From contig JAHQJS010000004.1 in NCBI GenBank assembly GCA_019057385.1, positions 1,169,068-1,233,067 of the forward strand: a DNA stretch of 64,000 nt. The letters are read 5' to 3'. Shown here piece after piece: positions 34,106-46,369 of this stretch. A program made the position numbers and the translations under genes. The notes beneath the pieces were generated by a model. It did not search any database. It saw only the letters and a list, made by a program, of their open reading frames with translations, and was not told the DNA's origin. Position 1 is the stretch's first letter; the number at the start of each line of letters is the position of its first letter. Source of the DNA: Candidatus Borrarchaeum weybense (GTDB taxonomy: Archaea > Asgardarchaeota > Sifarchaeia > Borrarchaeales > Borrarchaeaceae).

Positions 34106-36400
34106 TTACAATAACCGAAGAAGTTCTTCCAGTATTAATAATGCGCCTTTTTTATCAAGAGGTTCATTGTTATTGCCACACTTAGGAGACATAATACATG
34201 CAGGACACCCATCCTCACATTCACAATCACTTATCATTTCATATGTAGTCTGCAAGAATCCTGTATCTAATAACTTATAGATTTTTTCAGCAATGCCAAT
34301 CCCAAATTCGTAACCGTCGTAAATGAAAATAGCAGCTTTCTTTTCATCTTCGTGATATGGACTAGAGACACCACCTATGTCCCATCTGTCGCATAACGCG
34401 TACATGGGTGCCATTGCAATCATGGCATGCTCACAAGCATGAATAGCCCCCTCAAAATCATACCCACTCTCGGCTACTTTCTGTTGAATCCATTCTGGAA
34501 GTGTGAAATAAACGGCAACTGTCTGAAACTTCAATGGAGGTAGATCAATAGGTCGCCTCCCGATTATGACATCATAACGCTTTATCACATAAGAATGATA
34601 GAATTCAGTGACTTCTACATCAGCAACTTTCAATTCGAAGCCTAAACTAATTTCCTTTTCTTCTGTGATTTTCAGTATTTGAATATCTGTTTCTTCTAAC
34701 GGATTTGTATGAAGTTCAACATCTTCTTTTCTAACCGACGCAATCATTTTTTCGAGATCAAGGTTCTCTACGACATAGGTTTCTCCCTGATGAAGTAAGA
34801 CTGCACCTTTATAGGCCTCTCTATAAGCCTTTGGTAAATCCATTGTTTCAAGCAATTTACCATTATAATGAACGTAAACCATCTTATTTGAGATATTGTT
34901 TATGTTAACTACCTCAGTAGCACGCATCTTACCTGAATAGACATATCCCCTCGGAGTCTGCGTGATCAATTTGTGACGTTGCAAAGCATCTAATGATTCT
35001 TCAAATTTCAAACCGAAATACTTGTCATCTTCTAATTTGGCAATTGGAAGTTCAGCGGAAGCGCACATTAAATGACCAAGCACAACATATGGATTTTTTA
35101 AATCAATTACAGCATGTTCTGGTGAACTTCCAAAAAATTTTTCTGGATGTTTCATAAAGTATTGATCAAGAGGGTTTGAAAACGGTACTAAAATTGCCAA
35201 TGAATCATCCATTCCTCTTCCTGACCGTCCGGCTTGTTGCCATGTTGAAATTATAGTTCCTGGATACCCAGAGATAATAACGGCATCAAGCGAACCAACG
35301 TCGATTCCAACTTCGAGAGCAGTTGTTGAAGTCACACCTAGTAATTCCTTATTTTTCAAGCGTTGCTCAATATCTCTTCTTTCCTCTGGAAGGTATCCTG
35401 CCCGATAAGGACTTATTCGATCTGCTAAGAACTCACTAGCTAGATCTTCAGATAGAGCCTCTCTTGTCCACCTTGCAATTAATTCAGCCATTTGACGGGA
35501 AATTGTAAAGCACAGAGTCTGGATACTGCTTTTAACACTTTCAGTAAGTAAAAACATAGTTTCTTGGTGAGTTGAGCGTCTTATGCATTTAGCCTCATCG
35601 CTATAGGGAGGATTCCAAAAAACAAAGAACTTTCTTCCTCGGGATGATCCGTCTTCTGAAATAACTACACATTTTTTCCCGGTAAGATTAAAAGCTTGTT
35701 CTTCAGGATTCGCTATAGTAGCGCTAGAGAGAATAAACTGTGGAGATGAGCCATAATAATCACATATCCGAAGAAGTCTTCGAAATAGGAAGGCGCAATT
35801 AGCACCGAAAACACCTCGATAAGTATGAGCCTCATCAATCACGATAAATTTCAATCCCTGAAAGAATTTCTTCCATTTTGAATGCCAAGGAAGATATTGA
35901 TGTATCGCATATGGATTGCTTAAGATCATCCTTGATTTTTGTCTAATATTGGGACGTGCATGGGATGGTGTATCACCATCGTAAACACTTGCTTTTGTTT
36001 CTATGCTAGTTTCACTTTCAAATTGTGATAAGATCATTAGTTGATCATTAGAAAGAGCTTTTGTTGGATACAAAAATAATGCTGTAGAATTGGCATTTTT
36101 CCAAAGTTCTTCAAAGATTGATAGAGTATATGCTAAGGTTTTTCCGCTAGCTGTTGGTGTCGTAATTATTATATTATTTCCTCTTCGAATTTCATTTATC
36201 GCTTCTGCTTGGTGAATGTAAAGTTGCATGCTTCTTTTGTTGAGAAAACTTTGAAGAGGCAAGCCGAGTGGAAAATCGAGTGATCCATACTTTGGTTCTT
36301 TTTTTGGAAGTGTTTCTGTATGTACAATTTGTCCTTCATAATCTGAGGTTTCCTTTAATCCTCTAAGAAATATCTCAATTGAACTCATCATAAATTTCAC
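34106..36400 (-). CDS. DEAH-box helicase with C-terminal DUF1998 (Hrq1/MrfA/SftH-like)
   Basis: TPTASGKT, DEAH, SAT, QQAGRSGR, CECEDGCPAC Zn motif. Confidence 0.92.
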   Translation of the reverse strand: MKFMMSSIEIFLRGLKETSDYEGQIVHTETLPKKEPKYGSLDFPLGLPLQSFLNKRSMQLYIHQAEAINEIRRGNNIIITTPTASGKTLAYTLSIFEELWKNANSTALFLYPTKALSNDQLMILSQFESETSIETKASVYDGDTPSHARPNIRQKSRMILSNPYAIHQYLPWHSKWKKFFQGLKFIVIDEAHTYRGVFGANCAFLFRRLLRICDYYGSSPQFILSSATIANPEEQAFNLTGKKCVVISEDGSSRGRKFFVFWNPPYSDEAKCIRRSTHQETMFLLTESVKSSIQTLCFTISRQMAELIARWTREALSEDLASEFLADRISPYRAGYLPEERRDIEQRLKNKELLGVTSTTALEVGIDVGSLDAVIISGYPGTIISTWQQAGRSGRGMDDSLAILVPFSNPLDQYFMKHPEKFFGSSPEHAVIDLKNPYVVLGHLMCASAELPIAKLEDDKYFGLKFEESLDALQRHKLITQTPRGYVYSGKMRATEVVNINNISNKMVYVHYNGKLLETMDLPKAYREAYKGAVLLHQGETYVVENLDLEKMIASVRKEDVELHTNPLEETDIQILKITEEKEISLGFELKVADVEVTEFYHSYVIKRYDVIIGRRPIDLPPLKFQTVAVYFTLPEWIQQKVAESGYDFEGAIHACEHAMIAMAPMYALCDRWDIGGVSSPYHEDEKKAAIFIYDGYEFGIGIAEKIYKLLDTGFLQTTYEMISDCECEDGCPACIMSPKCGNNNEPLDKKGALLILEELLRLL

Positions 36401-36746: not shown

Positions 36747-39700
36747 TTGCCTAATTGGGTGAAAAACAAGTTGAACGATCACGATAAAACAAAAGAGCAA
36801 CTTATCGAAGAATTAATAGAAATGCGTCAAATTGCTGCTAATTTGAAGACACTTGAAAATATGTATAAACAAACTGAAGAAAAACTTCGAGATTCGGAAG
36901 AGAAATATCATATAATGGTCGAGAATGCCAATGAACCTATCTTTGTAGCACAGGATGGGATAATTAAATTCGCAAATCAGAAGGCTATTGAAGTATTTGG
37001 GTATCAATTAGATGAATTGACTTCAAGACCTTTTGTGGATTTTATTCATCCAGATGATCGAGAGATTGTTATTGAACGTCATATAAAAAGACTCAAAGGT
37101 GCTGAAATTCCCCATGTCTACCCTTTCAGAATTATAAACAAAAACGGAAATGAAATATGGGCCGAAATCAACGTAGTTCTTATCAAATGGGAGGAAAGAC
37201 CTGCTACTTTATTTTCAATAAGAGACATAACCGAACGTAAACATACAGAGGAATTATTGAAAAAATCGGAAGAAAAATACGCAACTATCGTAGAACAGGG
37301 AAACGACGGGATCGCTATTGCTCAGTATGGGATGGTAAAATTTGTAAACAAAAAGTTGCTTGAGCTTTTTGGCTATTCGTTAGAAGAAACACTTGAAAAA
37401 CCATTTCTTGATTTTATTGCTCCAGAATATCGAAAAATAGTTATGGAACAATATAAAAATAGGCTCGCTGGAGAGAATTTTCAAACTAGATACGAATTAG
37501 CAATCAATACAAAAGATGGTAGGAAGATACCCGTTGAAATAAATGCCAGTTTGATTGAATATGAGGGGAGAACCGCAGATTTAGCGATAATACGAGACAT
37601 TAGCGAGCGTAAGCGGTCAGAAAAATCACTAAGAGAATCTGAAGAGAAATGCCGTAAGTTGATCGAGCATTCCCTATATGGAGTATTAATTATACAAGAC
37701 CAGGGTATCGTATTCGCTAATCCAGCATTCGCTAAGATTCTTGGCTATACAATGGAGGAATTGTTAGCTTTTTCGCCAGAAGAAATGAGGATGCTTGTAC
37801 ATTCAGAGGATCGAGCACTCGTTGAAGTGAGGATACGAGATCGCTTTATGGGGGAATCGGTGCCTCAACGCTACTCTTTTCGTATGATCAGGAAGGATGG
37901 CTCAACAAGGTGGCTAGAATCATCTACAAATCTTATCAATTATCTTGGAAGACCTGCTGTACAGGGTATTTTGGTAGATATTACCGAACGCAAACAGGCA
38001 GAAGAATTACTTAGAGACTCCGAGGAAAAATTCAGGCAGCTTGCAGAGCAGTCACCAAACATGATTTTCATTAATAAGAAGAGTAGGATAGTATACGCCA
38101 ATAAGAAATGTGAAGAAGTTTTGGGCTATACACGGGAGGAATTCTATTCACCTGGTTTTGATTTCCTTTGTTTGATTGCCCCAGACTATAGAAACTTGAT
38201 ACTTTCAAGGTTACATACACATATGGATGGCGATGAGATCGCGCCCTATGACTATGCTCTTGTCACCAAAGATGGTAAGAGAATTGAGGCAATAATCACT
38301 AGCAAATTAATAGAATATGATGGAGAGAGGGCGATCCTTGGGATAGTAACTGACATCACTGATCGAAAACGGACTGAGAAAGCGCTGGAGCAGCGGGTGC
38401 GAGAACTGGATCTGCTGGATAAGGCGCGCTCATCCCTAGCTAAAGGTCTAGATCTACCGAAGGTCATCCGTACCGTTGTTGAGGGCATTGTCGAGACGTT
38501 CGGCTATACTCTGGTCAGCCTCTACTTGCGTAAAGGTGATATATTGATACTTCAACATCAGATGGGTTACCACAAAGAAATCTCCGAAATTCCGATAACA
38601 AAGGGGGTCTCTGGCCGCGTTGTTCGTACCGCAGAACCTGTGTTACTCGAAGATGTTCGCACCGATCCCGAGTTCCTAGGGGCTATTGAAAATATCGCCT
38701 CTGAGATCTGCGTTCCGTTGTTCGACCAAAATGAGGTAGTGGGCACTTTAAACGTTGAGAGCAAAGCGGGTAAACACCTCACGGAAGCTGACTTGCGCCT
38801 TATGACAGCTCTGGGCGAATACGTTAGTGTTGCCATCGGAAAAGCCAGACTTTACGATGCAGCGCAACGGGAAATCGCCGAGCGCAAGAAAATAGAGAGT
38901 CAGTTAATTGAATCAGAAAAAAAATATCGTATGTTAATTGATCAGTCGCTCCAAGGTATTACAATTTTACAGGACGGCTTTATTAAGTTCGCTAATCCAG
39001 CATTCGCAGAGATCAGCGGATATACGATTGAGGAACTACTGAATTTTTCACCCGAAGACGCGAGGGCACTTGTGCACTCAGAGGATCGGGAAATTGTGCA
39101 AGAATGGATAAGAGATCGATTTATGGGCAAGCCAAGTTCTTTGCGTTACGATTTTCGAATAACCAGAAAAGATGGGTCGGTGAGCTGGCTGGACGCATCT
39201 GTTACTCTTATTGAATATCAAGGAAAACTCGCTAATCAGGTCACCTTTTTAGATATTACAAAGCGTAAACATGCTGAAGAAGAAATGAGGAAATATACTG
39301 AAAACTTGGAAAAACTCGTTGAAGAGAGGACATCGGAACTCATGGAGTCAGAGGCCCGTTATCGGGGGTTATATGAGTCCTCCATAGATGGCATCGCCTT
39401 CACAAATATGGAGCAAAAGATAGTGGACTGTAATCAGGCCTTCGCGGATATGCTCGGATACACTAAGGAGAAACTGTATCAATTAAGCCTATGGGACATC
39501 ACGCCCAGTAAGTGGATTGATATGAACAAAAAAATCTTTTCTAAAGAAGTGTTTGCGAAGGGTTATTCCGATGAGTACGTAAAAGAATACATCAAGAAGA
39601 ACGGAACAATCGTCCTAATCTCTGCAAGGTCATGGGTCATCAAGGATAAGGAGGGCACACCCACCGGATCATGGGGCATCGTTCGTGATATCACAGAACG

Positions 39701-40427
39701 GAAGAAAGTTGAACAAATGCAGTCACAATTCATCAATGTAGCTGCACACGAACTTCGAACTCCATTAAGCGCATTAAAAGCCCACGTAGATCTCCTTAAG
39801 ATAAAAATTAGTCGAGGTTTTTGGTCACTCCCTGGAGAAGTAAATGAGAAGATAGACATTATAGCACGGAATGCAGGCAGACTTGCTCTTCTTATCAATA
39901 ATCTTCTTGATTTTACTCGCCTTGAAGCCGGCACGATAAGAATGAATATTGAATTAAGCTCACTTGAAAATTTGGCAATTGAAATTGTAAAAGAAGTCAA
40001 TCCATTAGCTAAAAAGCATAAGCATGAGATTAAAATCATAACTCTAAAGTCATTGCCGTTGATTTATTTAGATAAAGACAAGATAAATGTGGTTTTTAAT
40101 AACTTGCTTTCTAACGCGATCAAATATACGCCTAAAGGTGGTAAAATTAACGTCTTGCTAACGGAACTAGATAACAATATCCATATCATGGTGAAAGATA
40201 ACGGTATAGGTATCGCGGAAGAAGATCTTGAAAGTATCTTTCTACCTTTTCACGTAGCTGATGTGAATACTACTAACAGACTTCAAATACAACCTGAGTT
40301 CGAACGAACAGGATTAGGACTGGCTATAACGAAAGAATACGTTAAAATGCATGGCGGCTCAATATGGGTGGAAAGTCAAGTCGGAGAGGGAAGTACTTTC
40401 CATGTGATCCTTCCCAAGAGAAGATAG
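36747..40427 (+). CDS. Soluble sensor histidine kinase: six PAS, one GAF, HisKA, HATPase
   Basis: Repeated DITERK linkers, GAF (SEICVPL), HELRTPL, NLLSNAIKY, DNGIGI, GLGL. Confidence 0.93.
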   Translation: MPNWVKNKLNDHDKTKEQLIEELIEMRQIAANLKTLENMYKQTEEKLRDSEEKYHIMVENANEPIFVAQDGIIKFANQKAIEVFGYQLDELTSRPFVDFIHPDDREIVIERHIKRLKGAEIPHVYPFRIINKNGNEIWAEINVVLIKWEERPATLFSIRDITERKHTEELLKKSEEKYATIVEQGNDGIAIAQYGMVKFVNKKLLELFGYSLEETLEKPFLDFIAPEYRKIVMEQYKNRLAGENFQTRYELAINTKDGRKIPVEINASLIEYEGRTADLAIIRDISERKRSEKSLRESEEKCRKLIEHSLYGVLIIQDQGIVFANPAFAKILGYTMEELLAFSPEEMRMLVHSEDRALVEVRIRDRFMGESVPQRYSFRMIRKDGSTRWLESSTNLINYLGRPAVQGILVDITERKQAEELLRDSEEKFRQLAEQSPNMIFINKKSRIVYANKKCEEVLGYTREEFYSPGFDFLCLIAPDYRNLILSRLHTHMDGDEIAPYDYALVTKDGKRIEAIITSKLIEYDGERAILGIVTDITDRKRTEKALEQRVRELDLLDKARSSLAKGLDLPKVIRTVVEGIVETFGYTLVSLYLRKGDILILQHQMGYHKEISEIPITKGVSGRVVRTAEPVLLEDVRTDPEFLGAIENIASEICVPLFDQNEVVGTLNVESKAGKHLTEADLRLMTALGEYVSVAIGKARLYDAAQREIAERKKIESQLIESEKKYRMLIDQSLQGITILQDGFIKFANPAFAEISGYTIEELLNFSPEDARALVHSEDREIVQEWIRDRFMGKPSSLRYDFRITRKDGSVSWLDASVTLIEYQGKLANQVTFLDITKRKHAEEEMRKYTENLEKLVEERTSELMESEARYRGLYESSIDGIAFTNMEQKIVDCNQAFADMLGYTKEKLYQLSLWDITPSKWIDMNKKIFSKEVFAKGYSDEYVKEYIKKNGTIVLISARSWVIKDKEGTPTGSWGIVRDITERKKVEQMQSQFINVAAHELRTPLSALKAHVDLLKIKISRGFWSLPGEVNEKIDIIARNAGRLALLINNLLDFTRLEAGTIRMNIELSSLENLAIEIVKEVNPLAKKHKHEIKIITLKSLPLIYLDKDKINVVFNNLLSNAIKYTPKGGKINVLLTELDNNIHIMVKDNGIGIAEEDLESIFLPFHVADVNTTNRLQIQPEFERTGLGLAITKEYVKMHGGSIWVESQVGEGSTFHVILPKRR

Positions 40428-40560
40428 AATTAGGATGAAGTATTAAATTTATAATAAACATTGAATTGCGTGAAAGTGTCCTTTCATGCAATTATATCCA
40501 CATTAGTTTTTTTAACTGTTCAAACATCACTAAAATAGCGAGTCGTATGAGGCTTCTGAA

Positions 40561-41052
40561 GTGAACACATTAGTCATAGCAACATGCGTTAAAGAGAAAC
40601 GAAAGGGAAGTCATAAAGCTAAAGATCTCTATATTTCGGATCTATTCAAAAAGATGAGAAAATATGTTGAAACGTATAATTATGACTGGAGAATTATTTC
40701 TGCAAAACATGGATTGATTAATCCAGAAAAAGTGATTGATTCCTATGAGGATGAATCACTAGATCAATTTAAATTACTTCAAGGAAAACAAACTGAAAAC
40801 TTAAGGGCAAAAAAAGAAACATTGAGAAATATAATTGACGAACAGTTGAGACCAGTTCTAACAAACTATGAGCGAATAATTTTAATGTGCGGAAAGCAGT
40901 ACAGAGACGTTATATTACCATTACTTGAGGAAAAAGAGGTTATAAACTATTTTAAGGGAACAAAAGGAATAGGTGAAATTAAGCAAAAACTCAGTAGTGA
41001 TATCGCCAAGAAAAAACAGCTCCCTCTCGATGAATATCTCACCGCCGCATAA
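40561..41052 (+). CDS. DUF6884-like protein (YaaA/DUF5591-related fold, seen near TGT/DpdA genes)
   Basis: C..K....AKDLY.S.LFKK, IISAKHGLI, GKQY, GIGE motifs. Confidence 0.7.
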   Translation: MNTLVIATCVKEKRKGSHKAKDLYISDLFKKMRKYVETYNYDWRIISAKHGLINPEKVIDSYEDESLDQFKLLQGKQTENLRAKKETLRNIIDEQLRPVLTNYERIILMCGKQYRDVILPLLEEKEVINYFKGTKGIGEIKQKLSSDIAKKKQLPLDEYLTAA

Positions 41053-41125
41053 GTTAAAAAGTTAAGAGGATAACAGTACACCATATTTTTCGTTTTTAAA
41101 AAATCTATGCGGAGTGGTGTTGTAA

Positions 41126-42343
41126 ATGAAATTCTATTTACCATTCTGGTGGCCTGATGGGATCAATACGCATTTTGACCCCTTCTTAGAAACCGTTCCG
41201 CATAAAGAAAAAGTTCGAATTTGGAATATCTATAATCCTCCACCCTTAGATGGTATCCTTGTTTCGAGAGTAAATGTAGAATCAAAACCTCCCGAAAATG
41301 ATGACATTCATACAGCTTTAGACTTCAAAGGATCCATAATGGGCGATTGTGGGGCGTTTTCCTATATCGACGAAGCAGAACCGCCCTACGATCCTATAGA
41401 CACTCTAGAATTTTATGAAAAATACGGATTTGATATTGGGGTGACCGTTGATCACCTCATTGTTCCTAAATACGATAATGAGAAAGAATATCGACAAGAA
41501 CTGACCATCAAAAACGCAAAAAAGATGTTTGATGTGTGGAAAAACAAAGAAACTAAATTAAAACTACTTGGTGTTGTCCAGGGATGGAATGCTAACTCTT
41601 ATGCAACTGCAGCTCTTGAACTCGCTGAATATGGTTTTGATTACATTGCACTAGGAGGTTTGGTACGCGAACCGACAGAAAACATAAAGAAAATCCTAGA
41701 GATGGTTCATGCCATACTTCAAACAAACTCTCAAGAAAAAGGCGTACAAACAAAAATTCATTTGTTTGGCATTGCACGAGAGTCACTTTTCGCTACGATG
41801 AAACATACAGGAATACACTCTTTCGATAGTGCAGGAAGTCTTCGAAATGCTTGGTTGAGCGCCAAAAAAAATTATTATTTGGATAATGTGCCCTATTGTG
41901 CCATTCGCATCCCCAGGCCAAAAGATCTACGAGGTAAAAAAAAGAAATTTGTAGAAGAGCACGAAATTTCGAAAGACCTTTTGGTTAAATTGGAAAAAAA
42001 AGCGTTGGCAAACATCCGAGCGTTTCAAAAGCAAGAAATTACTCTTGATGAAGTACTGACAGCATTAAAAGAATATACCTCTGTTTTCACCCCTCCTAAG
42101 CAAACAGATCAAATCATCAACGAGTATCAACGGACACTCAATGCTAGACCATGGGAGTTGTGTGACTGCTCACTTTGTAAAAAGATAGGGATTGACATAA
42201 TTTTCTTCAGAATGCACGAAAGGAATATGCGACGCGGGTTTCATAATGTCTACGACTTTTATAATCACTTCAAAAAGTGGGAACAAAACTATTTACCATC
42301 TAAGAAAAACGAAAAGGAAAACCAACAATTGAAGTTAGTTTAG
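41126..42343 (+). CDS. dpdA: DpdA-type guanine transglycosylase (7-deazaguanine insertion into DNA)
   Basis: DGILVS, MGDCGAFSY..E..PPY, VTVDHLI, GVVQGW, IALGGLV, IHLFG, SFDS, RPWELCDCSLC...RRGFHN. Confidence 0.82.
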   Translation: MKFYLPFWWPDGINTHFDPFLETVPHKEKVRIWNIYNPPPLDGILVSRVNVESKPPENDDIHTALDFKGSIMGDCGAFSYIDEAEPPYDPIDTLEFYEKYGFDIGVTVDHLIVPKYDNEKEYRQELTIKNAKKMFDVWKNKETKLKLLGVVQGWNANSYATAALELAEYGFDYIALGGLVREPTENIKKILEMVHAILQTNSQEKGVQTKIHLFGIARESLFATMKHTGIHSFDSAGSLRNAWLSAKKNYYLDNVPYCAIRIPRPKDLRGKKKKFVEEHEISKDLLVKLEKKALANIRAFQKQEITLDEVLTALKEYTSVFTPPKQTDQIINEYQRTLNARPWELCDCSLCKKIGIDIIFFRMHERNMRRGFHNVYDFYNHFKKWEQNYLPSKKNEKENQQLKLV

Positions 42344-42370
42344 ACTATTTGTAACAAGCACTAAATTCAA

Positions 42371-43579
42371 TCATATCGCTAAAGAGTCACTCATTAAGTG
42401 CGGAATATTCCCACAGGGACATTGTTTTGTATCCTTTAGTTCTATCCACTTCTTTGTATCACTAGCGTAACGAGGTTTTAGTTTAAAAATCAATACTAAT
42501 TCTTGCCCGGTTGATAAAAGTTGTTTTCCTTCTATCTTAACTACTACCTTGTTCTTTTTTACATCAACTGTCCATTCGAATGGCTCAGCAATCTCGCTAT
42601 ATGATTTGGTTAGATTAATCTCGCCTATTTTTCGCTTATGATCCATTAGAATTTCGCATGATACTGCGCCATTGAATTTGGAAAATTCATAACTAAGTTT
42701 AAGCGCGTCTAAACGCCTAAGTTTTAGCCAATAGTGAAAACATGCTGAAAACTTGTTTTTATTCAGTTTACAAACGTACATTCTCTTTTTATCTTGAATA
42801 TTGATCGTATATGACTCACCTAGTCGTAAGTTGTTATAGTAACTCTTAATAATTTCCGGTGAGACGGTAGCATTTGCGATCGTTAAATCCTTCAATTTAT
42901 GGGTGAAGACATTTGGCTCGTAGGGAAGAGACTCATCAAATTCATTTGTAATCTCAACTTCATAAGGGTCATTAGAAGAAAACAAAGTAACATAAGTGAT
43001 GAAAGGAGCCCTATTTGATAATTTTAAATATTTTCTTCGCTCAAAATAGTCCATTAACCCATCACGTCGAATTTTCCATGTAATATCCTTTGTAAGTAGC
43101 CAATGTATTTGCGTATGATTTGTAAAGAATTCAAAGAGGTCGGAATAACGAGATATCTCATTTTCAGATGCTACTTTACTCTGAAAATCGACAGGAATAT
43201 CCTTTGTAAAATATGAGGAGGGTAGGCTTCGTCCAAAGTACAAAATTCGTTTCTTTATCGTCCAAAAATCAGCAAGAGCCTTTTTTCTCTTCTTCTTTTC
43301 CTTATTGATAAGTTCTAATTGTTCCAGTGCATTTAATGCCCTTCTTACATTAGCTAATGGTTCTTGTAGCTGATCTGCCAAATCATGTGTAAAGAACCCT
43401 TTTTTGTTTTCGAGAAGTCGAGCATATGCTTTGAGGGCAGTATCATTTTTCCAGCCCATTACCTTTCCGAATGCTTCAATTTTATCTTTATTATTCATCA
43501 TATCCTCTGAAAGGATAAATTCGCTTGCAGTAGATTTCGATTCTGAGTTTTTGAGTTTCTTTTTAGGCAATAGACTCAC
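42371..43579 (-). CDS. Hypothetical protein: N-terminal winged HTH (TFE/TrmB-like) plus unknown beta-rich domain
   Basis: DLADQLQEPLANVRRALNALEQLELI...FW pattern. Confidence 0.6.
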   Translation of the reverse strand: MSLLPKKKLKNSESKSTASEFILSEDMMNNKDKIEAFGKVMGWKNDTALKAYARLLENKKGFFTHDLADQLQEPLANVRRALNALEQLELINKEKKKRKKALADFWTIKKRILYFGRSLPSSYFTKDIPVDFQSKVASENEISRYSDLFEFFTNHTQIHWLLTKDITWKIRRDGLMDYFERRKYLKLSNRAPFITYVTLFSSNDPYEVEITNEFDESLPYEPNVFTHKLKDLTIANATVSPEIIKSYYNNLRLGESYTINIQDKKRMYVCKLNKNKFSACFHYWLKLRRLDALKLSYEFSKFNGAVSCEILMDHKRKIGEINLTKSYSEIAEPFEWTVDVKKNKVVVKIEGKQLLSTGQELVLIFKLKPRYASDTKKWIELKDTKQCPCGNIPHLMSDSLAI

Positions 43580-43935
43580 AGTTCAGTTTTTTTACAATTA
43601 TCTCATTCGTCCTATAAAATTTTTTGTAACAGCTTTTTTATTTCATCAAAACTTCAAACCTTAATCAATACACACAAGAAATAAGCATCCAATATCAAAA
43701 TAAAACACTTAAACAAGTTTTATCCTGGTTATTTTTGCTCCTCAGCGGATTTTTAGTCTTTATATCGATTTAACATTCAAGTACAACTGTGAACCTGTTA
43801 CAATTTCTGTCATTGGAAATCCCTAAATTCGCTGATTGATAAAAAGAGTATAGAGCATTAAATTCCTGTTTTGAGTACATTTCCGACAAAAACTAGTATA
43901 TTTGAAAATAAGAGGCATATCTAAGGAGGAATTCC

Positions 43936-44493
43936 ATGGAAGAAATGGATGCAAAGCACATGAACGAACAAGATAGTAAGATGAAGATCTTCGCGGATAG
44001 TAAGGAAGCTGCGTTAACCGCGATAATGGCAGCGTTATATGCTGTTCTTACATGGGTTGTAGCCCCGATTGCTTATGGTCCAATACAATTTCGAGTGAGT
44101 GAAGGATTAAAGGGATCTGTAATTAAAAAGAAGGTTCTTATTATTAGCTTTATTATTGGGAATGCGTTATCCAATATATTTAGCCCCCAGGCAGGTATTT
44201 GGGAATTTCTCTGGATGCCCTTTTGGAACCTCATCGGTGGTGGATCATGTTATCTCATTGCCAATAAACTTACTTACAACTTTAATTACAAAGATGGAGA
44301 ATACAACCTATTCTATTTTGTTGGTGCTTTCGTGTATGCGTTCTGCATAGCATTCGCTGTAGCATTCATGCTCGCAATTCTCTTTGCCCTTCCCTTTTGG
44401 ATCCTACTTCCAGTACTTCTTCTACCAGAAGCCATACTGATCGTCGGTCTTACACCTGTAATGACTCGTATTATGAATGAAATAGAGTGGTAA
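43936..44493 (+). CDS. queT: QueT-family queuosine-precursor transporter (ECF S component)
   Basis: AALYAVLT...PIAYGPIQFRVSE signature, multiple TM helices. Confidence 0.85.
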   Translation: MEEMDAKHMNEQDSKMKIFADSKEAALTAIMAALYAVLTWVVAPIAYGPIQFRVSEGLKGSVIKKKVLIISFIIGNALSNIFSPQAGIWEFLWMPFWNLIGGGSCYLIANKLTYNFNYKDGEYNLFYFVGAFVYAFCIAFAVAFMLAILFALPFWILLPVLLLPEAILIVGLTPVMTRIMNEIEW

Positions 44494-44543
44494 GACCATA
44501 ACCACTTTTTCCTTACTGTTTTTCTATACTTATGGGATTAGGT

Positions 44544-44792
44544 TTACTTGAAAAGCCAATCTTCTCTTTTCTTTTTCATATGAGTCTCCAAGACAGTCTT
44601 TGTATGAATGTCTCCTACTGTTTCAAAAACCATGTGTGACTGAAGGGGTTTTTTTCTAGCTGGTTCAAATCCCTGAACTGGGCACAGTTCTATTGGTGTT
44701 TTAGCTAGAACTTTATGTTCAAAACAATCGCCTTTGACTTCATCTACTGGTTTGTAGTATTTACAATCCCTACAAATGAACTCTTCACGCAT
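44544..44792 (-). CDS. Small four-Cys protein (possible Fe-S/Zn; BssC/HpdC-like Cys spacing)
   Basis: CRDC...KGDC...CP..GF; its 5' UTR is split by the adjacent element. Confidence 0.6.
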   Translation of the reverse strand: MREEFICRDCKYYKPVDEVKGDCFEHKVLAKTPIELCPVQGFEPARKKPLQSHMVFETVGDIHTKTVLETHMKKKREDWLFK

Positions 44793-44794
44793 TT

Positions 44795-45123
44795 CCCTTA
44801 GGGAAGCGCCTGCCCTTTAGGGTGGGGAAGAATTGAGGGTGTTTTTCACTTTTATTAGGGCCTCTCCACTTTTAAATACGTGTTCTGAGATAGAGGTACG
44901 TGGTCTAAAGGCACACCTCTCATAGAAGTGGAAATGGTTAATGACCTCAAGGATGAGGAGCAGTAAACTGGTATAGCCCGACTCTATATGAGGATTACTG
45001 GGCTGGGCTGCGGTAAACACGCCCATGTGTTAGCGTGCGATGAGGTTGAAACTCTTTTGCAAAGAAGAGGACTGAGACCAAGCACAGCTAAAAGCCTCAC
45101 TGCTTTAGCGTGAGGTAGTTTAC
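44795..45123 (+). mobile_element. Protein-less IS200/IS605-type element carrying a promoter and a structured RNA
   Basis: Left hairpin CCTGCCC-TTTA-GGGTGGG, TTTAAATA 44871-44878, right hairpin CCTCAC..GTGAGG ending GTAGTTTAC; flanked by ACGCATTTCCCTT direct repeat. Confidence 0.85.
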
Positions 45124-45322
45124 GCATTTCCCTTCCTCTCCTTTTATCAAATGAAATCGGAATCTTTCACAACGTCATTATATCGATTTATTCATGCAAG
45201 ATTAGTTGTTATTGTATCACTATAATATATTTTCATGATATAAAATATTTTGTATGAGTTTTTTGACGAAAACTATTAATCCTTAAAACAATTAAGATAA
45301 TGTTCTAAAATGGTCTTAGGAG

Positions 45323-46369
45323 GTGAATCTATTAGTAGGATCTTACAGGCTGACTAAAGCAGTAAGGGTTCATGGTTGATCCTGTAAGTTGCCCCAAGCA
45401 GACCTAGAAAAGTTACTAGAGAGCATAGAAGTCTATCTACCCGAAGGTTCAGTTAAAGAGAAAATGTTAGCAGGAGCAGGAGATGACGCCGCAGTAATAC
45501 AGATTAGAGATGATCTAGCACTTATTGAAACTGTAGATTTTTTCACACCAAATATTGACGAGCCAATGATTCAAGGAGAAATCTCTGCATGTAATACAAC
45601 TAATGACATTTATGCGATGGGCGCTGTAGACATTCTTAGTGTACTAGTTGTTATGGGTGCACCAACAAATATGCCTTTTGAAATCTCTCGAGATCTTTTA
45701 AAGGGATTTAAAAATTTCTGTGAACGTCTAGGAACACACATTGTCGGCGGACATACTATAATAAATCCATGGCCTTTCATTGGTGGTTGCGCACTAGGTT
45801 TGGCGCACCCAAATAGCGTTGTCTATAATCGCGGTGCAAAAGTTGGAGACATTCTTCTCTTAACAAAACCTTTAGGAACGCAACCTGCGATGGCAGCATA
45901 TCGTTTACTCAAAGAAGAACAACAATTAATTGATTTATCTGAATATTTACCCACTAAAGTAATTGATCGTGCAATACAAAAAGCAATTGAGATAATGACA
46001 ACAACAAACAGGCCAATAGCAAAAATTATGCAGGAAATCAAGGTTAATGCCGCAACGGATGTAACCGGCTTTGGATTGACTGGGCATGCACGTGAAGTAG
46101 CAACACAAAGCAAGGTAAATATTGTGATTGATACTATGCCGATCATAAAAGGAACTAATATCCTTTCTGATCAACTAGGCTATTCATTAATGGAGGGTAC
46201 ATCTGCAGAGACTGCTGGAGGAATGTTACTCTCGTTATCACGTGATAATGTTGATCTATTCAAAGAAAAACTAATAGAAAGAGGAATAAAATCCTTTGAA
46301 ATAGGGCATGTTAAGGAGGGCAGCGGACAGGTGAATATTGTGCCTGATATAAGAATTATTGAAGTTTAG
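45323..46369 (+). CDS. selD: Selenophosphate synthetase, selenocysteine-containing (UGA 45377-45379)
   Basis: In-frame N-terminus YRLTKAVRVHG-TGA-SCKLP upstream of the called start; GDDAAV, TVDFFTP, NDIYAMG, GGHT, LTKPLGT, TDVTGFGL, ETAGG. Confidence 0.95.

Follow-up and report, generated by a model that had tools for sequence, protein, structure and literature searches.

A trimmed and probably import-fed Dpd variant, lacking DpdB and restriction genes, in an Asgard archaeon

How might an archaeon place a 7-deazaguanine in its DNA if it is unable to make the base, and with how few genes? The question is raised by a short locus of Candidatus Borrarchaeum weybense, an Asgard archaeon, in which the gene of a transglycosylase follows a small DUF6884 gene and lies close to the gene of an importer of the queuosine precursors preQ0 and preQ1. 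The locus is part of a stretch of 64,000 nucleotides (nt) of contig JAHQJS010000004.1 (positions 1,169,068 to 1,233,067), which we call the window and by whose numbering all features are located. A first reading of these letters had taken the locus for an undescribed archaeal system. We find that it is instead a reduced variant of Dpd that probably depends on import and has neither DpdB nor restriction genes, and we favour, at somewhat better than even confidence, the view that it represents the DNA-modifying half of a 7-deazaguanine system of the Dpd type, fitted to a host unable to make the base. The four open reading frames (ORFs) of the original prediction were confirmed in position and family, and are listed here with the spacer between the last two:

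40561 to 41052, plus strand: mini-dpdC (DUF6884/PF21818), 163 residues; PF21818 at E 7e-24 and 84.9 bits, cut-off 30
41126 to 42343, plus strand: dpdA, DNA-guanine transglycosylase, 405 residues; NF041059 at 330.3 bits, cut-off 200
42371 to 43579, minus strand: gene of a winged helix-turn-helix (wHTH) protein of a small unnamed family, 402 residues; weak TrmB/Lrs14-type HTH at residues 45-100
43580 to 43935, no strand: control region shared by the wHTH gene and queT, a 356-nt spacer with a conserved inverted motif
43936 to 44493, plus strand: queT, S-component of an energy-coupling factor (ECF) transporter, for queuosine-precursor (preQ0/preQ1) uptake, 185 residues; PF06177 at 74.8 bits, cut-off 33.7

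The start of dpdA lies 73 nt past the end of mini-dpdC on the same plus strand, and the two genes probably form one operon. The wHTH gene, on the minus strand, converges with dpdA and diverges from queT.

On sequence criteria the 405-residue transglycosylase is a true DpdA, and in this the original prediction was right. Compared with the score of the DpdA family NF041059, the models of the tRNA-guanine transglycosylases (TGT) give 60.9 bits for arcTGT (cut-off 350) and 38.8 bits for bacterial Tgt (cut-off 307), while the PADLOC DpdA model matches the protein at 2e-93. The structure of Salmonella Montevideo DpdA (PDB 7UI4) is matched at E 3.8e-53 over residues 70-382, and that of arcTGT (1IQ8) at E 3.6e-7. 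In an alignment of 15 archaeal DpdAs the residues D74, D109, D234, G177/G178 and C346/C348/C351/H373 are invariant; their counterparts in the Salmonella enzyme are the acid/base D95, D130, the nucleophile D256, the G206/G207 loop and the Zn site (PMC10164549), with D74/D109/D234 equivalent to D95/D130/D256 and G177/G178 to G206/G207. A tree built from 90 DpdA domains places the protein inside the DpdA radiation, in one clade with two genus-mates and adjoining a sequence from Bathyarchaeia. Asgard DpdAs are scattered over at least four places in this tree, which suggests that DpdA was transferred repeatedly among lineages.

We consider it very improbable that this archaeal DpdA-like enzyme modifies RNA (tRNA or rRNA) and not DNA. 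The TGT superfamily is ancestrally tRNA-directed, and the position of His181 in Salmonella DpdA is occupied here by Gln152, as in arcTGT. Against such a role stand a DpdA score about 270 bits above that of arcTGT, the absence of the C-terminal tRNA-binding and PUA domains, the presence of a separate full-length arcTGT elsewhere in the genome (529 bits) and the position of the protein within the DpdA radiation.

Other TGT-type genes were observed in the course of the analysis. Standalone ORFs of about 160 residues in other Asgard genomes (L025-L027; G008:C49, G385:C22, G135:C17) match the C-terminal 80-100 residues of the DpdA model only, that is, the Zn-site region. Many loci of archaea, Chloroflexota and Bacillota encode, within a few kb of DpdA, an additional TGT paralogue that is shorter, at about 300-360 residues (L064, L076, L082, L085, L089-L094, L098, L107, L110, L113, L116, L128, L129, L134, L140, L141). 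The genome of B. weybense itself holds a second TGT-type operon on the minus strand at about 733.5-737.8 kb of G000:C4 (L056:154-2337, L059:690-2760), with products of 297 residues (TGT-like; arcTGT model 62 bits, DpdA model 31), 428 residues (unknown), 487 residues with a C-terminal DUF6884/YaaA-like domain, and 204 residues (unknown).

What is the protein encoded next to DpdA? DUF6884 was related by the authors of Pfam to YaaA/DUF328, with the motifs CxxxK and LSAxxG (PMC11701544). DpdC, which converts preQ0-DNA into amido-deazaguanine (ADG) DNA, was called a DUF328 protein in older papers (PMC5699537; PMC12839542), and a bioRxiv preprint of 2025 lists DUF6884 with dpdC as its example (10.1101/2025.02.24.639861). 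On the basis of this preprint and of matches to the PADLOC DpdC models we conclude that PF21818/DUF6884 is the DpdC family and that the window gene encodes a DpdC homologue, named here mini-DpdC. Loci were gathered from across the prokaryotes (20 Asgard and 80 others), giving 90 non-redundant DpdA genes. DUF6884 is fused to or near DpdA in 81 of them, archaeal as well as bacterial: fusions account for 51, with DUF6884 at the N-terminus in 42 bacteria and in one Asgard genome, and at the C-terminus in eight other archaea, and another 30 have a DUF6884 gene inside the fetched flank of about 8 kb, mostly adjacent. The domain in these loci is backed by Pfam, separately from our iterative search. 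Thus the claim that DUF6884 is a new partner of DpdA is refuted, since the pairing or fusion of the two is the rule in bacteria and archaea; the novelty of the locus had been overstated because the identity of DUF6884 with DpdC was overlooked. NCBIfam holds no DpdC model, NF041060 and NF041061 being those of DpdB and DpdD.

Both motifs of the family, CxxxK and (L/I)SAxxG, are kept in mini-DpdC (C9, K13, I45, S47, A48, G51), and C9, K13, S47, A48 and Y62 are invariant among 21 DpdA-linked DUF6884 homologues. An AlphaFold2 (AF2) model of the protein (predicted local distance difference test, pLDDT, 84) was compared with known structures by Foldseek, the top PDB folds being AF0587 (2Q07, E 5e-4) and YaaA (5CAJ, E 1.8e-3). 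AF0587 has the motif PC-x3-KPY-x2-S-x2-H of the ArcS C1 domain (PMC5699537; PMC10516641), which is the proposed catalytic core of ArcS, the enzyme that turns preQ0-tRNA into archaeosine. Because of this fold match and the shared motif, an attack of the Cys-x3-Lys centre of mini-DpdC on the nitrile of nucleic-acid-bound preQ0 would be a reasonable mechanism, the product of which may be an amide, an amidine or another compound. An hhalign comparison of the DUF6884 and DUF5591 alignments gave a probability of 0.2% and hence no sequence support, so that the link to the ArcS C1 domain is drawn from the Foldseek result and the motif.

The same genome carries a third DUF6884 gene (161 residues) at about 387.5-390.7 kb of G000:C4 (L058:1477-1962, L058:2140-3045, L051:932-2262), beside genes of a DUF362 protein, a poly-ferredoxin and a 278-residue PP-loop ATPase that has the N-terminal motif alone in common with QueC.

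Which parts of a Dpd system are missing? The original prediction had stated that dpdB, dpdC, dpdD-K and folE/queCDE are all absent from the window. This proved correct for folE/queCDE and also for dpdB and dpdD, and wrong for dpdC, which is present as DUF6884. DpdB, a ParB/DndB-like ATPase, gave no match in the genome with NF041060 nor with a hidden Markov model (HMM) made from 14 bacterial DpdB sequences; among the gathered loci it is present in none of 30 archaeal and in 13 of 60 bacterial ones. NF041061 (DpdD) likewise found no match in the genome, with DpdE, G, H, I and K not searched individually. True DpdE, DpdF and DpdJ are carried by bacterial loci of the set and not by the window.

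A helicase 4 kb away had been put forward as a possible further member:

34106 to 36400, minus strand: DUF1998 (MZB) helicase gene, DEAD/MZB, TIGR03817/MrfA-like
36747 to 40427: PAS/GAF histidine kinase gene, 1226 residues, between the helicase gene and mini-dpdC

The helicase is most likely a housekeeping neighbour, unrelated to the locus. It stays below every cut-off for a Dpd helicase (DpdF 47.9 bits, cut-off 550; DpdJ 41.3 bits, cut-off 800), is 91% identical in Sifarchaeum compared with 78% for DpdA, and is present in another genus without DpdA. A 573-bit match of the helicase to an HMM of a BLAST cluster of dpd-island helicases was discarded as an artefact, the cluster having held the helicase's own orthologue (L062), and a link of the helicase to those islands was rejected as well, their true DpdE, DpdF and DpdJ being different proteins. 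In the Sifarchaeum contig the helicase gene directly adjoins dpdC. The kinase gene, whose product has 795 residues in Borrarchaeum, is not found between them there (L145:9419-9932), and it is thus a lineage-specific difference at the locus, either an insertion here or a loss in Sifarchaeum.

These results bear on the idea that the locus serves defence or DNA repair with an unrecognised effector, the mark guiding one of three candidates: an unknown nuclease, the MZB helicase, or the wHTH protein, whose C-terminal domain would read modified DNA. We judge this unlikely. In its favour, the Dpd of bacteria serves restriction-modification (PMC10164549), mini-DpdC finds its best PADLOC model in a defence candidate (PDC-M57A, 1e-20), other Asgard lineages place the pair with UvrD-like helicase, NurA-HerA and NUDIX genes, and YfjM, which belongs to DUF6884, reportedly binds DNA lesions (PMC11701544). 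However, no DpdD-K gene is found at the locus (within the limits of the searches given above), the helicase has the scores and the distribution just described and is separated by the kinase gene, and the relatives of the wHTH protein track transporters and not DpdA.

From where would DpdA obtain its base? The ORFs of the window that were scanned, those from 34 to 47 kb, include no folE or queCDE gene, and no match to QueC, QueD or QueE from the searches of the whole genome falls inside the window. The QueD-like, the best QueE and the QueC/QatC-like (337 residues) matches of the assembly are all on contig C1 (179 kb), which we took as a binned phage and whose matches were not counted as host synthesis; they lie for example at 119.6-120.7, 136.6-137.6 and 150.9-151.8 kb, beside an HPRT-like gene and a DNA methyltransferase. 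The 337-residue QueC-like gene was rejected as a source of host preQ0, being QatC-like, beside the DNA methyltransferase and on C1. Off this contig there is no canonical QueC (best match 41 bits, cut-off 150), PTPS/QueD has no match on host contigs, and the best radical SAM match of QueE on the chromosome is the NrdG2 activase. QueT occurs once in the genome, at this locus, and five EcfT/CbiQ genes elsewhere are available to power it. Since the host contigs are without QueC, QueD and QueE, the host would lack de novo synthesis of preQ0, and its import would be required both for archaeosine in tRNA and for DpdA. The salvage reading of the original prediction is thus upheld. In loci of Hadarchaeota (L082) and Halobacteriales (L092) queC, queD and queE stand beside dpdA, and the Sifarchaeia locus looks like an analogous arrangement, with import replacing synthesis.

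The wHTH family is the most original element of the locus. A word-indexed search of 5.8 billion proteins gave four close clusters only, and an exhaustive HMM search of 1.8 billion representatives added seven distant full-length relatives, which share the wHTH and the C-terminal domain; the conserved residues of the latter include W168, Y178, R182, D263, R266 and C280. The ESM Atlas offered no usable match for the protein. Relatives have the following neighbourhoods:

P0008: divergent from QueT
P0013: divergent from an operon that encodes QPTR/Vut_1 (PF02592), a RaSEA-like radical SAM protein and a DUF5591 protein of ArcS-C1 type
P0020: divergent from QPTR, on three contigs
P0005: divergent from DUF5591 and a RaSEA-like gene
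P0007: adjoins two DUF5591 genes and an arcTGT-like gene
P0011: no neighbour of 7-deazaguanine type
P0006: contig of 2.6 kb only, with a single neighbour without a family match

QPTR is a known family of preQ0/preQ1 transporters, unrelated to QueT (PMC11130926). Because relatives of the wHTH protein pair with two non-homologous importers of one metabolite, we propose a dedicated role in regulation: the protein probably controls precursor salvage, and we put it forward as a candidate transcription factor that would respond to 7-deazaguanines. The wHTH protein had been considered as a regulator or a reader of the mark, and of these the adjacency to precursor transporters favours the regulator and not the reader. 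The spacer between the wHTH gene and queT has a mean identity of 79% across four orthologous loci and contains an inverted motif whose arms, TTGTAACAG (43624-43635) and CCTGTTACAA (43792-43803), are 156 nt apart; both copies of the inverted TGTAACAG motif are kept in all four spacers, which makes it a candidate operator. An Rfam scan of 40000-45500 revealed no riboswitch and no other RNA family. In bacteria, preQ1 riboswitches control queT and yhhQ. Those systems resemble the arrangement proposed here in that the gene of a precursor transporter is placed under a dedicated sensor, and differ in that the candidate sensor of the archaeal locus is a protein, a wHTH with an unknown C-terminal domain.

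Are the two halves of the locus then one system? The nearest public loci by DpdA identity are those of Ca. Borrarchaeum yapensis (90%) and Ca. Sifarchaeum marinoarchaea (78%), and the order of the four genes is kept between species across the latter distance. The linkage of queT, for which conservation had been expected, was found within the genus and not beyond it. Across the class QueT and DpdA occur together in three of three genomes and are both missing in the other three; this co-occurrence was set aside as uninformative because two genus-mates without both genes also lack both flanking genes, the region being missing from those incomplete bins. The two halves might be unrelated neighbours, with queT and the wHTH gene serving tRNA archaeosine by way of arcTGT, and dpdC-dpdA adjacent without co-regulation. 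In favour of this, wHTH-transporter pairs exist with no DpdA nearby (L153/L154, L159-161), arcTGT is present in the genome and needs preQ0, the wHTH gene is convergent with dpdA and not divergent, and the linkage is limited to one genus. Yet the metabolite on which the two modules draw is one and the same, and a rare one, the four genes have stayed in order between species whose DpdAs have diverged as far as stated, and other archaeal dpd loci hold genes of preQ0 supply at the equivalent place. We regard such a chance adjacency as rather unlikely, while giving it more weight than the other alternatives.

We thus propose the following course of events for a joint modification system. QueT, driven by a shared ECF module, would import preQ0, which presumably also feeds arcTGT for the formation of tRNA archaeosine. 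DpdA would then exchange specific guanines of DNA for preQ0 by the double displacement of TGT enzymes, with D234 as the nucleophile and D74 as the acid/base. Mini-DpdC would attack the nitrile of the DNA-bound preQ0, with Cys9 and Lys13 as the likely catalytic centre and dADG (7-amido-7-deazaguanine) as the probable product. The wHTH protein may bind the region between its gene and queT and tune import, and perhaps dpdCA, to the supply of precursor. In this scheme neither the DpdB ATPase nor the DpdD-K restriction genes would take part.

Several points weigh against this proposal. Salmonella DpdA requires DpdB and ATP (PMC10164549), and no replacement for DpdB is found at the locus. The likeness of mini-DpdC to canonical DpdC does not extend over the full length (163 against about 310 residues); PADLOC DpdC models match only its residues 12-63, with E values of 3e-4 to 6e-4, compared with the 1e-10 to 1e-11 that bacterial fused or adjacent DUF6884 forms reach, and the protein may catalyse a different reaction or merely bind DNA. 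The genus-mate G001 has QueC. The adjacency of queT and dpdA is confined to the genus (three genomes and metagenome contigs), and pairs of QueT and wHTH exist without DpdA (L153), so that the two modules could be neighbours that act independently. For the wHTH protein AF2 gave a model with a pLDDT of 32 and no usable fold. Finally, modified DNA is a prediction from sequence.

Dpd has been characterised as a bacterial, DpdB-dependent system. The closest known case is that of Salmonella enterica serovar Montevideo (dpdA-K; PMC10164549, PMC5699537), with which the locus has in common the catalytic Asp and Zn site of DpdA, an adjacent PF21818 partner and preQ0 as the expected base. It differs in having neither DpdB nor DpdD-K, a DpdC of 163 and not about 310 residues, a precursor that would arrive via QueT and not by queCDE synthesis or YhhQ, and an archaeal host. 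The restriction-less dpd islands and DUF6884-DpdA fusions of bacteria (GATOR-GC preprint, 10.1101/2025.02.24.639861; L068-L137) are alike in their modification-only gene set and in the tight coupling of DpdC to DpdA; the preprint made dpdAB a requirement and covers bacteria only, whereas here DpdB is missing, and the two genes are separate and much shorter. Phage DpdA systems (DpdA1-4; PMC6884629, PMC10516641) show that DpdA can work without DpdB and that some phages take host precursors, but here the locus is cellular and chromosomal, it has a DpdC homologue, and its DpdA is closest by sequence to the bacterial type. ArcS C1/AF0587 (PDB 2Q07; PC-x3-KPY), the best structural match of mini-DpdC, has Cys-x3-Lys after the first strand as does the model, and both act or would act on the nitrile of nucleic-acid-bound preQ0; ArcS differs in acting on tRNA and in making an amidine.

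Of 400 Asgard genomes, 25 carry DpdA-DpdC pairs that lack DpdB, and such pairs were seen in Bathyarchaeia, Hadarchaeota, Aenigmatarchaeota and Halobacteriales as well; the DpdA subfamilies named in the literature that we searched are those of bacteria and viruses only. With two enzymes of 163 and 405 residues, one importer and one regulator, the locus is a very small candidate for reconstitution, which could help to ask whether DpdA can dispense with DpdB and what role a DpdC of half the usual size has. Should the wHTH family sense bases of the preQ0 type, the salvage of queuosine/archaeosine precursors would gain its first protein regulator, and archaeal genomes a useful annotation handle. 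A wider reading, which we advance tentatively and hold for possible at less than even chance, joins both aspects: the wHTH family would consist of proteins that sense 7-deazaguanine precursors and control importers of the QueT or QPTR type, as an archaeal counterpart to preQ1 riboswitches, and the chromosomal DNA of Asgard archaea would contain dPreQ0 or dADG placed by a DpdB-independent DpdA and a minimal, ArcS-C1-like DpdC.

On the 3' side the locus is followed by three further genes, one of which is conserved beside queT within the genus:

44544 to 44792, minus strand: gene of an 82-residue Cys-rich protein, without a family match

The others encode an AIR-synthase-like protein and a Xer-type integrase. 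The Cys-rich protein, a possible member of the system, has orthologues in L040, L041 and L145. A tRNA scan of the window found no tRNA gene that might mark the borders of an island. In the Sifarchaeum locus an extra radical SAM gene of 244 residues lies between the Cys-rich and the AIRS-like genes (L145:3880-4614); the equivalent place in the window (44793-45388) measures about 600 nt only, and tblastn found no remnant there.

Other Asgard lineages show different surroundings of DpdA. In one family (f31, L029-L034) it is flanked by a DUF6884 protein of 240-275 residues and by a protein of 287-304 residues that clusters with DUF6884 by BLAST and has no Pfam match; these loci adjoin genes of an A-type ATP synthase, and in all but L033 DpdA is also flanked by a DUF5591 protein that stands alone, resembles ArcS C1 and has a PC-x3-KP motif, so an archaeosine-type mark in DNA is a possibility there. 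In two others (f22/f28, L043-L048, and L042) a UvrD-like helicase, DUF6884, DpdA and NUDIX occur together, and the order in L046 is DUF6884, NurA, HerA, DpdA. L042 carries a DUF6884-DpdA fusion of 795 residues, beside the UvrD-like helicase type and QueC.

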